Of a stretch of DNA of 43,155 bases, positions 9,001-12,000 are shown in pieces. The stretch lies in the NCBI GenBank assembly GCA_045863855.1, contig BTVV01000046.1, positions 1 to 43,155 on the forward strand, in the 5' to 3' direction. Made by a program: the position numbers. Source of the stretch: Planctomycetota bacterium. GTDB taxonomy: Bacteria > Planctomycetota > SZUA-567 > H5-PLA8. Within the stretch, counting starts at the first letter, position 1. The number at the start of each line of letters is the position of its first letter.

Positions 9001-12000
9001 CGTACTTCGAGTATCGATGGCAGTAGCCCTCTTCGGTCGCTCCGCCTTCGGCCAGTTCGATCGTGTCGCCGGGGCGCATGGTCAGCTTGACCGGGCTGCA
9101 TTTGTGCGTGATCCAGAAGCGGGCCGTCCGGGTCGGCGTCTCTTTCAGGCGCTCCGGTTCGCCGGACTCTTCGCAGCCGGCGCAGAAGCCGTCGCCGCAA
9201 GGACAGGGATCCTGCGTGTATCGTCGATCAGGCATGACGCATCCCCTTTCGGGCTTCGTATTGGGCCTTGCCGCAGGCCGACGTATCCACGCAGGTCATT
9301 TCGGCGACATCCTGGGCGCAGTAGCCCCGCGCCAGCATGACCTCGCGGCACTGCGCTTCGCGCGACGCGATCACGGTCGCGACGAATCGCTGAAGGAAAT
9401 AGATGTTCCAGTATCGGTCGCGCGGAGCCGCGCTGTCTTTAGGCGCGGGCCTGGCTTCGACGGTCCAGTTGGATCCGCTCGCATCGCCGCGCCCTTTGCC
9501 AATCCGCAGTTCCTTGGCCCGATAGCGCGCCTCCATCTCGCACATGAACTCGTGCGATGTGAAAGGCTGGGCCTCGCCGGTTGCGCGGTTCACGTGGTAC
9601 AGCATCCAGAGTTCGTCCATGCGTCCTCCCTTGCGAATCTGGTTCGGGTGAGGTAGGTTGCGGATGAGGCTTGCGCCGGTTCCGCTGTGCTGCCCCCGTG
9701 GTGACAACACGGGGGCTTCGTTTTTAGTGACACTAGGGGCAGAGGGATTCGAACCCTCACGAGGCTTGCGCCTCGCGGTCGTGACAAGACCGCGCGTCTG
9801 CCAGTTCCGCCATACCCCCAGGCACTACCCTTCAAAACAGCCTGCGATGCTCGACGCAAACATCCTCAACCCCTGCCTCTTTGAGCAGCCGCCGCGCGTA
9901 CGAAACATTGACTGGGCTGTGCATCGTGAGGTATTGGCCATCCAGAGAAAGCTCGTAGGCCCACTGCTTGAAGTGGCGGCTCATTACGGCGTCCACCTCC
10001 GTCCACTTCCAGCGGTAGGCCGGAATGGCCGGCCTCGGCTTCGGGCTGAGTTCCATGCTCAAGATCCTTTCTTAGCGTGCCGGGCGGCGCAGCGGTCCGC
10101 TTCCACGTCGTCGTCGAGGCGGCGCCAGCCCAGCCGTTCGTAGCGCTCGGGATCGGCCTCGTAGCGCTTGATGCCCTCGCGGGCGAAGTTGAAGTCGAGA
10201 CGGCTCTGGACACAGTAGCGGAACCAGTCGTCCAGCCGGTCCGGAGGCATGGTGGTTCTCTCGGAGTTCATCGGCGTGTTCTCCAATCTCGCTGAAGCTG
10301 CCGGTATTCGACCTTGGTGAGCTTCCCGTCGTGCGGGTACATGGAGCGGATCACGCGGGACTCTTCGAAGCGGATCGCCAGATCGTCTCGCGTCGGGTCC
10401 ATGTGCCGACGCATGTCCTCCAGCCATTCCACCTTTTCGCGGATCCGGTTCAGCGCGTTGCGTTCGGCGGCTTCGCGGGTGAATCCGCAACCCGTAAAGC
10501 CTTCCACCGCTCCGTCGTGGTGGCGGTAGGCCAGCCTGTACTCGTACATGCGAGTCCTCCTTGTTCAGATGCCCACGGCGATCCAGGGCATCGGTTCGAT
10601 CGGCAGGCCGGACCATGCGATCAGCACGGAGCCGTCCGAGACGATCTGGATTCCGTACGAGAGCGTGTAGAAGCGCATTTCAGCGCCTCCAGGCCAGCGA
10701 GTTGTTGTTCGGGTCGTCTTTCGGATCGAACGCAGCGACGCTGGGGTCGCGCTTGCAGATCCGCGCGGCATGAACGAGCGCGCAGGTTTCGACCCAGTTC
10801 CAGCGGCCGTCGTCGCCACGGGTCCAGATGGCCACGTAGGCGGTTCGGTGAAGCACAACGGACATGGCGGTTCTCCTTAGCTCATGTAAGAGCGACGGCA
10901 CCCTTGGTCGCAGAACTGGGCGTGGTGCGGCTGGTAGGGCATGCTTCGTCCGCACCAGCGGCATTCGCTGCCGGCGGCTTCGCGGATGGCTTGCAGGCGT
11001 CGTTCGTGGCGCCGCTTGAGCTTCACTTCGCGGTCGCGCGGAAGCCCGCCGCGGATGTTGATGATCTCGTTCGCGTAGTGCGCGAAGTCGCGCAGGATCT
11101 CTTCGCGCGATTGGGGCCACCAAGCCGCCAGCCCCTTCTTGAACATGCTGCCGGGCGGCGCTGATTTGACGCGCTTGTACGCCTCGACGTATTGGCCGGC
11201 CGTGACCATGCGATCCATGCACTTAAAATGCTTGGGCACCCATGGGGCCGGGGACGCGGTCGCGGGCACTAAAACACCTCCTGTCCCATGAGGTAATCCA
11301 CGAAGCAGTCGAAGCGCGCGTACGCGCGTTTCAGCGCTTCAGGATCGGGGTCGCCGGAGAGCATCTGGCTTTCGGGCGTCGCGGCGCGCTTGCAGACGGT
11401 TCCGCGCGCTTCGTCGAGCGCGCGGATGACCTCGCGCTTTAAGCGCGCGCGTTCGAGACGTGTCTCGGCTTCGGTCATGGCAGTCCGTGGCATCGTGGTT
11501 CTCCTTAGCAGTCGTCGGGGCCGGGCGTCGCCGGGAGTTCGAAGTAGCCGGCTTCGGCGCGGAGCGTGCGGATGGTTCCGTCGTCCGCCTGGATCCGTTC
11601 GGCGTAAATCCATTCGGGCGCGTAGATGATCTCGGGATCGCGCGCGGCCTTCAGAAACCAGCCGGCCGCGAAGCAGAGGGCCGCAACTCCGAGCAGCACG
11701 AGCGCGCGGGTTCGGTCGTATTTGTCGGGCATGGCGATTCTCCAGAAACAAAAAAGCCCCACGGGATCGCGGGGCTGACGTTGCGAATGAAAAGGCCGGG
11801 CGCGTCACATGTCGGCGTCGTGGACTCGATACAAGCTCCGTCTTGCCCGTGGCACGCGCCCGGCCCAGTTCATTTTCCTTGCGGCTTACGAACGTATTCC
11901 CCCAGCCGCACGTCGTAGCGGTACACGCGATCCAGCGGGGCGTAGGGCATCTTGTCGCACGTGCCGCACATTCGAGGCTTGTGTCCGCGCGGGATGTCCA

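Follow-up and report, generated by a model that had tools for sequence, protein, structure and literature searches.

A 43,155-bp contig from a Planctomycetota bacterium (BTVV01000046.1, assembly GCA_045863855.1; hereafter the window) carries a tRNA gene in which a leucine-type body is joined to an aspartate anticodon, and on the opposite strand a short transcription unit runs towards it. This locus raises the question of what such a tRNA does and what the facing transcript is for. The recurrence of the same pairing with other anticodons in other bacteria suggests an undescribed RNA-only switch that would restrain a misreading tRNA. Searches of open-licence papers and bioRxiv found no description of the tRNA/antisense pair, which an earlier note on this DNA had also called unreported, nor of any natural small RNA dedicated to binding one tRNA.

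The tRNA gene and the transcription unit that faces it

The gene was labelled tRNA-Asp(gtc) by ARAGORN and matched the Rfam tRNA model at 47.5 bits (E 7.8e-9). Global alignment with the host tRNA-Leu(TAG) gave 66 identities in 86 positions and with the other host Leu genes 52-59, whilst alignments with the host tRNAs for Asp, Tyr and Ser(GGA) gave 50, 54 and 49, respectively. The identity set of LeuRS under E. coli rules, comprising A73, A15:U48, G18G19 and A20a, is complete in this tRNA; according to the accessible part of PMC9976931, LeuRS does not need the anticodon. The D arm is of the Leu type, the anticodon stem has 5 bp, and U8-A14, the long variable arm and the elbow bases G18:U55 and G19-C56 are present as in bacterial tRNA-Leu. 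The earlier description of a class II tRNA with a leucine rather than an Asp, Tyr or Ser body, a Leu D arm, A73 and an Asp anticodon was thereby upheld. The acceptor stem comprises 7 bp, including the wobbles G1.U72 and U6.G67, and the gene does not encode CCA; both the G1.U72 wobble and the missing CCA count against the module reading set out below. The host encodes a single enzyme of the PolyA_pol family; it has an HD domain and looks CCA-adding.

Of five strong AspRS determinants, the tRNA also has four (G34, U35, C36 and C38), together with G2-C71. Bacterial AspRS responds most strongly to determinants in the anticodon (PMC9976931, as far as accessible), and some aspartylation of this tRNA is therefore possible. 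In place of the G73 and G1-C72 of tRNA-Asp it has A73 and G1.U72, and a canonical tRNA-Asp is present in the host genome. Sequencing error was ruled out as the origin of the anticodon, which is conserved in two related genomes (G006 and G007) and in a wastewater contig.

Table 1. Features of the cassette and its surroundings, in window coordinates
Feature	Position	Strand	Details
Accessory region holding the cassette	923..17009	none	Small minus-strand ORFs of unknown function in a string
Downstream 130-aa ORF with ribosome-binding site, unknown function	9228..9630	minus	ORF 9228-9620; RBS 9625-9630, abutting the -35 box
Sigma70-like promoter, TTGCGA-17-TAGGTT	9631..9659	plus	-35 box 9631-9636; -10 box 9654-9659; 7/12 to consensus
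Predicted antisense small RNA, ~60 nt	9665..9725	plus	Predicted start, set by promoter spacing
5' seed, 12 nt, exactly complementary to the variable arm	9666..9677	plus	
Segment complementary (with G-U pairs) to D arm and 5' acceptor strand	9678..9691	plus	Cofold structure
Intrinsic terminator	9692..9725	plus	Stem 9692-9716; U tract to 9725
Terminator loop GUGACAA, exact complement of the anticodon loop	9701..9707	plus	
Class II tRNA, leucine identity elements, aspartate anticodon GUC	9734..9819	minus	ARAGORN, Rfam, alignment
A73 of the tRNA	9734	minus	
Variable arm, 5 bp and GCAA loop	9761..9774	minus	Main target of the antisense seed
Anticodon loop UUGUCAC	9781..9787	minus	Anticodon 9783-9785
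Upstream 74-aa ORF, unknown function	9832..10056	minus	Ends 12 nt ahead of the tRNA

The convergent unit claimed previously was recovered with all three complementarities, to the variable arm, the D arm and the anticodon loop (Table 1). Its promoter was absent from the list of a consensus promoter scanner and is supported by positional conservation, the -10 box ending 6 nt ahead of the seed as it does in relatives. Cofolding of the predicted antisense RNA with its own tRNA gave a gain of -18.3 kcal/mol, against 0 to -5.9 kcal/mol with eight host tRNAs; only such cofold gains told cognate and non-cognate pairs apart, duplexfold energies failing to do so.

As the earlier note had stated, G006 and G007 retain the pair. 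In G006 a 218-bp cassette is kept at 94% within different flanking DNA, whilst in G007 the anticodon stem, anticodon loop (with A38 instead of C38) and variable-arm loop are altered and the antisense partner is altered to match. G000, G006 and G007 have different ORFs beside the pair, and carriers numbered 5 of 401 genomes in the phylum. Contigs from four wastewater runs, marked 'probably DNA' and used for sequence variants only, provided a homologue in which one variable-arm pair has changed from G-C to A-U in a compensatory manner (positions 9761 and 9774), and a homologue in which the terminator stem lacks one base on each side (positions 9693 and 9711).

Genomic surroundings of the cassette

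The accessory region is mosaically common to the window and G006, where its version has a type I restriction-modification system and another chromosomal neighbour; in the window its left end may lie past the contig end. A 43-bp att duplication (17364-17406 and 33939-33981) bounds an element with integrase, DnaB, tape-measure and terS genes at 17364-33981, and the tRNA is thus outside it. Between 1133 and 14786, a Pfam and PHROGs scan of 31 ORFs detected no integrase or structural family, leaving the previous 'prophage' label unproven. Atlas matches to viral clusters were below 0.8.

No dedicated promoter was seen upstream of the window tRNA, which is therefore probably co-transcribed with the minus-strand string of genes; an addiction module would normally need a tRNA promoter of its own, and that reading is weakened accordingly. 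The 130-aa ORF is not kept beside the cassette in G006 or G007. The ORFs of the element showed no avoidance of Asp codons (5.7% vs 5.4%), and PADLOC returned no match for nine of them or for the winged-helix (wHTH)-like protein discussed below. No synthetase gene was present among the window ORFs, no cas gene among the 66 window ORFs and no CRISPR family in the Rfam scans. Neither PLSDB plasmids nor INPHARED phages gave a match, and visual comparison of the DNA ahead of recA and two lexA-like genes revealed no shared motif that might be the LexA box of the host.

A family of leucine-bodied tRNAs with other anticodons

The family was defined as Leu-bodied tRNAs with non-Leu anticodons, and the matches listed in the scans, that of GTDB among them, provided at least 134 members; 22 hits with anticodon stems below 4 bp were set aside as likely indel errors in ordinary tRNA-Leu. 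Anticodons for Asp, Ala, Arg, Gly, Glu, Thr and Ser were seen. Distinct GUC members numbered at least 38, with A73 in 31 of 38, as compared with the 48 (40 with A73) counted previously; the A73 majority persisted, but the IMG/VR members did not, the GUC pattern giving no match there and none of 26 general IMG/VR matches bearing GUC.

A cognate seed of 11-21 nt was found just downstream in 30 of the 134 members listed, including the window tRNA and that of G007. Seeds of at least 11 nt occurred downstream in 23/108 listed members and upstream in 0/106, compared with 0.25% of cross-pairs, 0.5% of same-anticodon cross-pairs and 0/25 canonical tRNA-Leu; for GUC members alone the figures were 15/37 of those listed versus 0.45% of cross-pairs. 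The anti-anticodon lay in a downstream hairpin loop in 13/134 listed members, where 2000 permutations gave a mean of 4.0 and a maximum of 10. A sigma70-like promoter preceded the complementary strand in 29 of the 30 partnered members, 26 of these promoters standing 4-9 nt ahead of the seed, whereas a promoter-like box before the sense copy was found in none of the 30 (background 11/92 and 9/92); tandem and convergent layouts alike would yield a complementary RNA. Simple tRNA duplication was rejected as the source of the flanking matches, given that the segments are out of order (variable arm, D arm, anticodon), that canonical tRNA-Leu had no seeds and that the promoter was always on the complementary strand.

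Although the search pattern fixed neither base, A73 was present in all 30 partnered members and U48 in 132/134 of those listed, and 590 of 600 stem cells of partnered members paired. Among the members listed, a partner accompanied 29 of 104 with an intact acceptor and A73 but only 1 of 30 with broken ends (Fisher p 0.003, a value overstated because related loci are not independent). In all 29 partnered loci cofolded, the antisense RNA paired best with its own tRNA, a result that is partly circular as the loci were chosen by their seeds. In a hold-out set, the bodies of L210, L211 and L215 are nearly identical, but each has an anticodon loop of its own and a seed of 15-17 nt to match, and L187 contains two modules in tandem with different variable-arm loops. 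The independent scans, nulls and hold-out set thus bear out the proposed family of Leu-bodied tRNAs with cognate antisense RNAs. The earlier concern that half of the family lacks a partner was answered in part, given the rarity of partners beside broken acceptors and the finding that, of the 104 intact members, 29 have the RNA partner, 22 a small wHTH-like gene and none both; 53 have neither by the criteria used.

Many relatives sit in ordinary chromosomal DNA rather than in mobile elements, and partnered loci often stand alone among chromosomal genes, in many cases housekeeping ones such as guaA, secA/serS/lysS and ABC transporters. Of 15 long-flanked tandem loci, 10 had a convergent gene next to them, and the neighbours share no function. 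Two upstream motifs, both picked by eye, were GTTC-N7-GTTC (4/43, three in Saccharibacteria, vs 0/91) and a CGCAGC-type motif (7/43 vs 1/91); presumably these resemble LexA sites. In a sister class the acceptor ends have collapsed but the anticodon arm is kept, and defence-like genes follow (L183, SIR2-like).

Proposed mechanism, alternatives and relation to known systems

We regard as probable, on the sequence evidence, that the cassette is a control module of two RNAs that follows the logic of type I toxin-antitoxin pairs, and in which a leucylated tRNA mistranslating Asp as Leu is held in check by a constitutive anti-tRNA. The tRNA would be made when the surrounding operon (in the window) or an upstream promoter (elsewhere) fires, would be trimmed and given CCA by the host enzyme, and would be charged with leucine by the host LeuRS, which is blind to the anticodon. 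Insertion of leucine at Asp codons (GAC/GAU) could then lead to proteome damage or growth arrest; according to the accessible parts of PMC5389517 and PMC10404621, mistranslating tRNAs from nature are toxic to E. coli. The short partner, made from its own promoter, would recognise the cognate tRNA and not those of the host: its terminator loop would pair with the anticodon loop in the manner of a codon, the seed at its 5' end would invade the variable arm, and the next segment would open the D arm and acceptor strand, such that the paired tRNA or precursor could not fold, mature or be charged. The partner would thereby set a threshold, with mistranslation occurring only if tRNA synthesis outran it or the module were lost. 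Its purpose may be element maintenance, abortive defence or dormancy. Speaking against this reading are the 53 intact members with neither partner, the many partnered loci outside mobile elements and the absence of Asp-codon avoidance in the element's ORFs.

The same mechanism could instead serve the host as a stress switch, low inducible mistranslation raising stress tolerance or mutation rate with the antisense RNA as a damper. The solitary position of many partnered loci among chromosomal genes and the lineage-specific upstream motifs, suggestive of regulated tRNA promoters, agree with this, and the Gly-for-Asp tRNAs of E. coli mutA/mutC are mutators. Mistranslation by tRNAProX also raises carbenicillin tolerance (PMC10404621, accessible part). 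However, the sporadic spread, cassette-like movement, tandem copies and rapid turnover of anticodon and seed look selfish, and a beneficial substitution should not accept seven kinds of anticodon alike, making a host-beneficial role unlikely, if the strongest of the competing accounts. A distinctly less probable account is that the tRNA acts outside decoding, either as an antisense-controlled sponge that binds up a synthetase or an anticodon nuclease, or as an uncharged trigger of the stringent response. Encoded CCA is missing in most partnered members (seeds in 20/74 listed members without CCA vs 3/34 with it), the sister class keeps its anticodon arm despite collapsed acceptor ends, and some allo-tRNAs are charged yet unused, or inactive (PMC5389517, accessible part). 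Against this, partners track intact acceptors with A73, stems of partnered members pair almost throughout, and canonical tRNA-Leu genes of the same family likewise lack CCA.

We consider it very unlikely that the direction of control is reversed, with the tRNA-like RNA as regulator and the short transcript as a leader terminating before a controlled gene. A codon-like triplet in a hairpin loop, together with a terminator, does resemble T-box and C4/CI targets, and the tandem layout places the complement on the tRNA's own strand. Nevertheless, Rfam matched tRNA alone in the window region and 14 relatives, read-through in the convergent layout would only enter the tRNA gene, the neighbours have no common function, and the mostly convergent next genes of tandem loci leave nothing to attenuate, which also weakens the C4/CI-like alternative left standing by the earlier note. 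Least likely of all, in our estimation, is that the gene is simply one more tRNA-Asp that was remoulded on a Leu body, is aspartylated in the usual way and has its supply tuned by the antisense RNA. The AspRS determinants of the window copy would fit, and a few long-armed relatives look cognate (Asn with G73 in L025, L068 and L083; Pro with C1:G72 in L078 and L097), but A73 rather than G73 occurs in 25 of 28 listed GUC members with acceptors of at least 6 bp, C38 is not conserved, G1-C72 is missing in the window copy and the host already has its canonical tRNA-Asp. Moreover, the partnered Ala-anticodon members L082, L084, L124 and L141 lack G3.U70, and cognate charging is therefore not a family rule.

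Extending the module reading beyond this locus, we lean slightly towards widespread RNA-only toxin-antitoxin or threshold switches, in which a Leu-charged tRNA toxin with a freely exchangeable anticodon would co-evolve with the seed and terminator loop of its anti-tRNA antitoxin and a sister branch would use a small coiled-coil/winged-helix protein instead. If so, bacteria hold code-breaking tRNAs in check by antisense RNA, a natural, switchable form of programmed mistranslation that would supply purpose and control for the so far unexplained mismatched tRNAs near toxin-antitoxin genes. Anticodon-based annotation would conceal the entire family, a 200-bp cassette would suffice to put 'deliberate mistranslation' to the test in laboratory bacteria, and orthogonal tRNA/anti-tRNA pairs might be used as a translation switch.

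Type I toxin-antitoxin systems (hok/sok, tisB/istR-1, ldr/rdl) likewise rely on a short antisense RNA whose promoter and terminator are its own, in a convergent or tandem arrangement, with a cognate seed and module repeats, and the target mRNA encodes a small-protein toxin. The window locus has a predicted cis-encoded antisense RNA of this kind, but the complementarity is to a tRNA and no ORF is conserved. In type VIII systems a growth-inhibiting RNA toxin is neutralised by an RNA antitoxin. P1 C4/P4 CI and the T-box combine a cloverleaf RNA with loop-loop recognition and a codon-anticodon-like contact; the window module differs in its full tRNA cloverleaf, in the absence of a match to these in Rfam and in that most loci have no termination-controlled gene downstream.

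Allo-tRNAs (Mukai et al. 2017, PMC5389517, accessible part) share the long arm and the mismatch of identity and anticodon. As in the present family, their anticodons are diverse, GUC and GCG being among the commonest; they lie near toxin-antitoxin genes, and they show the missense suppression and the toxicity in E. coli that the module reading would predict. Their acceptor branches are of the 8/4 or 9/3 type and their identity is Ser or Ala (G73/U73 or G3.U70), whereas the window tRNA has a canonical 7/5 Leu body, A73 and G3-C70; the word 'antisense' is absent from the accessible main text of that paper. The tRNAProX/ProRSx pairs of Streptomyces and Kitasatospora (PMC10404621) resemble the proposed module in that their tRNAs are natural bacterial ones that mistranslate by design and are toxic if constitutively expressed, and the accessible part of the paper mentions no antisense or small RNA. 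These have Pro identity and a dedicated synthetase gene, whereas for the Leu body of the window tRNA, with its G1.U72 and no ProRSx neighbour, no synthetase beyond the host LeuRS would be needed and the partner would be an inhibitor. In CreTA, as described in the accessible part of PMC8501985, both components are again small RNAs and the toxic step lies at tRNA and decoding, but the CreT mini-mRNA sequesters rare host tRNAs and the crRNA-like CreA represses it transcriptionally via CRISPR-Cas; at the window locus, which has no crRNA-like antitoxin, cas genes or mini-ORF toxin, the effector would itself be a tRNA, with which the partner is predicted to pair directly.

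The window tRNA, its antisense unit and their setting

The tRNA encoded on the minus strand of the window was labelled tRNA-Asp by ARAGORN and scored 47.5 bits with the Rfam tRNA model. Its cloverleaf is canonical (7/5); the D arm is of the Leu type and the variable arm is 5 bp long, the tRNA has U48 and A73, and its gene lacks CCA. The nearest host gene is tRNA-Leu(TAG), with 66/86 identities, against 50 for the normal tRNA-Asp encoded elsewhere in the host genome. Neither a promoter dedicated to the window tRNA nor any avoidance of Asp codons in the ORFs of the element was found.

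Six nucleotides past a sigma70-like promoter, undetected by a consensus promoter scanner, lies a 12-nt exact complement of the tRNA variable arm (the seed). Next on the plus strand comes a segment complementary, with G-U pairs, to the D arm and to the acceptor strand on the 5' side. The terminator that closes the unit has a 7-nt loop exactly complementary to the anticodon loop. This promoter is weak; its spacing from the seed is the modal distance of the family. In cofolding, the predicted antisense RNA reached -18.3 kcal/mol with its own tRNA versus 0 to -5.9 kcal/mol with eight host tRNAs, and -3.0 kcal/mol with host tRNA-Asp.

Features of the window and, in the last line, of the remaining host genome (G000)
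Feature	Position	Strand	Basis or remark
Stretch common to G006	923-17009		mosaic
Cassette	about 9620-9836		ends constant
Sigma70-like promoter, TTGCGA-17-TAGGTT	9631-9659	plus	sequence; weak
tRNA, Leu body and Asp anticodon	9734-9819	minus	ARAGORN, Rfam tRNA model
Low-GC stretch (about 40%)	14800-16000		ORF-free; common to G006
Satellite-like element (16.6 kb) in tRNA-Arg(TCT)	17364-33981		integrase, DnaB-like helicase, tape measure, small terminase
43-bp duplication of tRNA-Arg(TCT) 5' part	17364-17406 and 33939-33981		element ends
int-alpA RNA	21533-21596		inside the satellite-like element
Array of 26 tRNA genes	G000:C1:23667-28178		apart from the scattered canonical set

The prophage setting proposed in the earlier note is not supported as worded, since the tRNA lies outside the duplication-bounded element that has the phage-type genes, amid a run of small minus-strand ORFs without known function. 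The low-GC stretch upstream of this gene string may contain its promoter or origin. In G006, another genome carrying the cassette, the counterpart of the common stretch bears a type I restriction-modification system, with other chromosomal genes at its border. In a further carrier, G007, the module occupies a separate island, which also contains two integrases, DUF932 and a RelE-type pair. Different DNA flanks the cassette in G006 and in a contig from wastewater; the wastewater copy shows a compensatory change in the variable arm and has a terminator stem shorter by one base per side.

Spread of the family and its cognate partners

A general pattern, which required a Leu D arm, an extended extra arm and C, G or U at the middle anticodon position and thus passed over anticodons for Val, Ile, Met and Phe, retrieved 26 viral and at least 119 GTDB loci; the GUC pattern retrieved 35 metagenome loci and none among viral sequences. 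From 147 non-Leu matches, 38 were removed: 22 with anticodon stems below 4 bp (likely indel errors), seven cognate-looking Ser/Asn tRNAs with G73, two short-armed, six duplicates and one truncated. With metagenome loci included, the final set comprised 136 distinct tRNAs, 134 with sufficient flank. By record title, the 80 GTDB loci listed span ten bacterial phyla; partnered, titled loci among the matches listed belong to Gemmatimonadota, Planctomycetota and Saccharibacteria. The pattern matched in 5 of 401 genomes of the host phylum (G006 was missed owing to a D-loop change), indicating sporadic spread. Amongst 37 unselected GUC members, 707/740 stem cells were paired, with two-sided changes in 16/20 pairs.

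For 23/108 tRNAs, versus 0/106 upstream, the anticodon-plus-variable arm had an exact match of at least 11 nt within the stretch lying 20-140 nt downstream. Cross-pairs gave 0.25%, same-anticodon cross-pairs 0.5%, canonical tRNA-Leu genes 0/25 and error-like tRNAs 0/22; for GUC members alone the figures were 15/37 versus 0.45%. The anticodon complement fell within a downstream hairpin loop in 13/134 (null mean 4.0, maximum 10). Thirty tRNAs were partnered, 22 in tandem, with the complement on the strand of the tRNA, and eight convergently, on the opposite strand. A sigma70-like box preceded the complementary strand in 29/30 and the other strand in 0/30, 26 of these boxes ending 4-9 nt ahead of the seed; about one in ten unpartnered flanks contained such a box. 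The partner is not a product of chance, and promoter polarity is the decisive point.

Serving as a hold-out set, three homologues of one genus found later (L210, L211 and L215) have near-identical bodies but three different anticodon loops, with seeds of 15-17 nt each matching its own tRNA; no seed was found in a fourth new locus, L214, with an amber anticodon. Just 3' of the tRNA in those three loci, the anticodon loop is mirrored a second time, in the -35 region of the antisense promoter, which varies along with it. The complement of a UGUCAA anticodon loop is the consensus -35 hexamer, and this coincidence may explain the origin of the antisense promoters and the frequency of GUC. L187 and L188 share the three-segment convergent layout of the window in differing sequence. 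Upstream of recA, L187:700-1140 holds two tRNA-plus-partner modules in tandem, the first with a seed mismatched to its own variable loop.

Acceptor ends, partner kinds and sister groups

An antisense partner accompanied 29/104 tRNAs with a 6-7-bp acceptor and A73 versus 1/30 others (p 0.003, overstated by kinship), the exception, L056, having lost its 5' acceptor strand. A further 22 intact tRNAs have a coiled-coil/winged-helix-like ORF of 130-160 aa about 20-60 nt downstream, no tRNA has both partner kinds, and no partner was detected for 53/104 intact members. Partners go with chargeable ends, and are RNA or ORF but never both. Read most simply, intact tRNAs of this family would need a brake.

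The ORF directly follows intact Leu-bodied tRNAs at L023, L031, L033, L044, L045, L051, L055, L062, L074, L080, L091, L096, L110, L112, L113, L120, L126, L130, L134, L155, L160 and L164, whose anticodons are often ochre UUA, and also UGG, AGA, UGU, UCC, UUC and others. It is conserved, falls in ESM Atlas clusters without names, and is a candidate protein brake or autorepressor. In a collapsed-acceptor class (L022, L027, L037, L065, L069, L116, L127, L183, L190, L194, L197, L198 and others; GCC or GUC anticodons), an A-rich 3' end replaces the outer acceptor pairs, leaving 3-5 bp; these tRNA-like genes, of which that of L183 sits ahead of a SIR2-like gene, are probably not chargeable. Long-armed tRNAs with an Asn anticodon, U1-A72 and G73 (L025, L068, L083) or a Pro anticodon, C1:G72 and A73 (L078, L097) may be cognate. 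In the Saccharibacteria loci L047, L104 and L117, the tRNA promoter has GTTC-N7-GTTC between its -35 and -10 boxes, which resembles a LexA-type direct repeat; a CGCAGC-type motif some 40 nt upstream of the tRNA is common to Gemmatimonadota members.

Proposed function of the pair, and known systems

We consider it rather probable that the window tRNA would be leucylated, mistranslating Asp to Leu, and neutralised by a constitutive anti-tRNA; in tandem layouts, the tRNA precursor may extend into the seed, adding a block in cis. According to PMC9976931 and PMC2377443, E. coli leucine identity comprises A73, A15-U48, G18G19 and A20a, without the anticodon, and aspartate identity G73, G34, U35, C36 and C38. 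A73 and U48, neither set by the search pattern, occur in 30/30 partnered tRNAs, and the four with Ala anticodons all lack G3.U70. Several points count against the mistranslating reading: the window tRNA holds four of the five Asp determinants, 53/104 intact members have no detected partner, neither a dedicated tRNA promoter in the window nor Asp-codon avoidance in the element was found, and many relatives lie among housekeeping genes. We give very little credence to a cognate extra tRNA-Asp. Natural mismatched tRNAs mistranslate and are toxic to E. coli, according to PMC5389517 and PMC10404621.

Identical chemistry could serve instead as a mild, beneficial stress switch, which is possible though unlikely; a decoy acting outside decoding is more doubtful again. 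A tRNA regulating a leader is improbable; this model is weak, since 10/15 tandem loci with long flanks have a convergent next gene and the C4, CI and T-box models all gave no match.

No tRNA with its own antisense RNA was described in the literature screened, mostly at the level of titles and abstracts and outside subscription papers. The pair is, as judged by sequence, real and widespread, and apparently undescribed; the function proposed for it is a strong inference. In type I toxin-antitoxin systems the toxin is a protein; the working logic is similar, but the pair falls outside that class, a protein toxin being absent here. Allo-tRNAs and tRNAProX are alike in their mismatch but unlike the window pair in structure and partner, and CreTA, as portrayed in PMC8501985, is a different system from the window pair.
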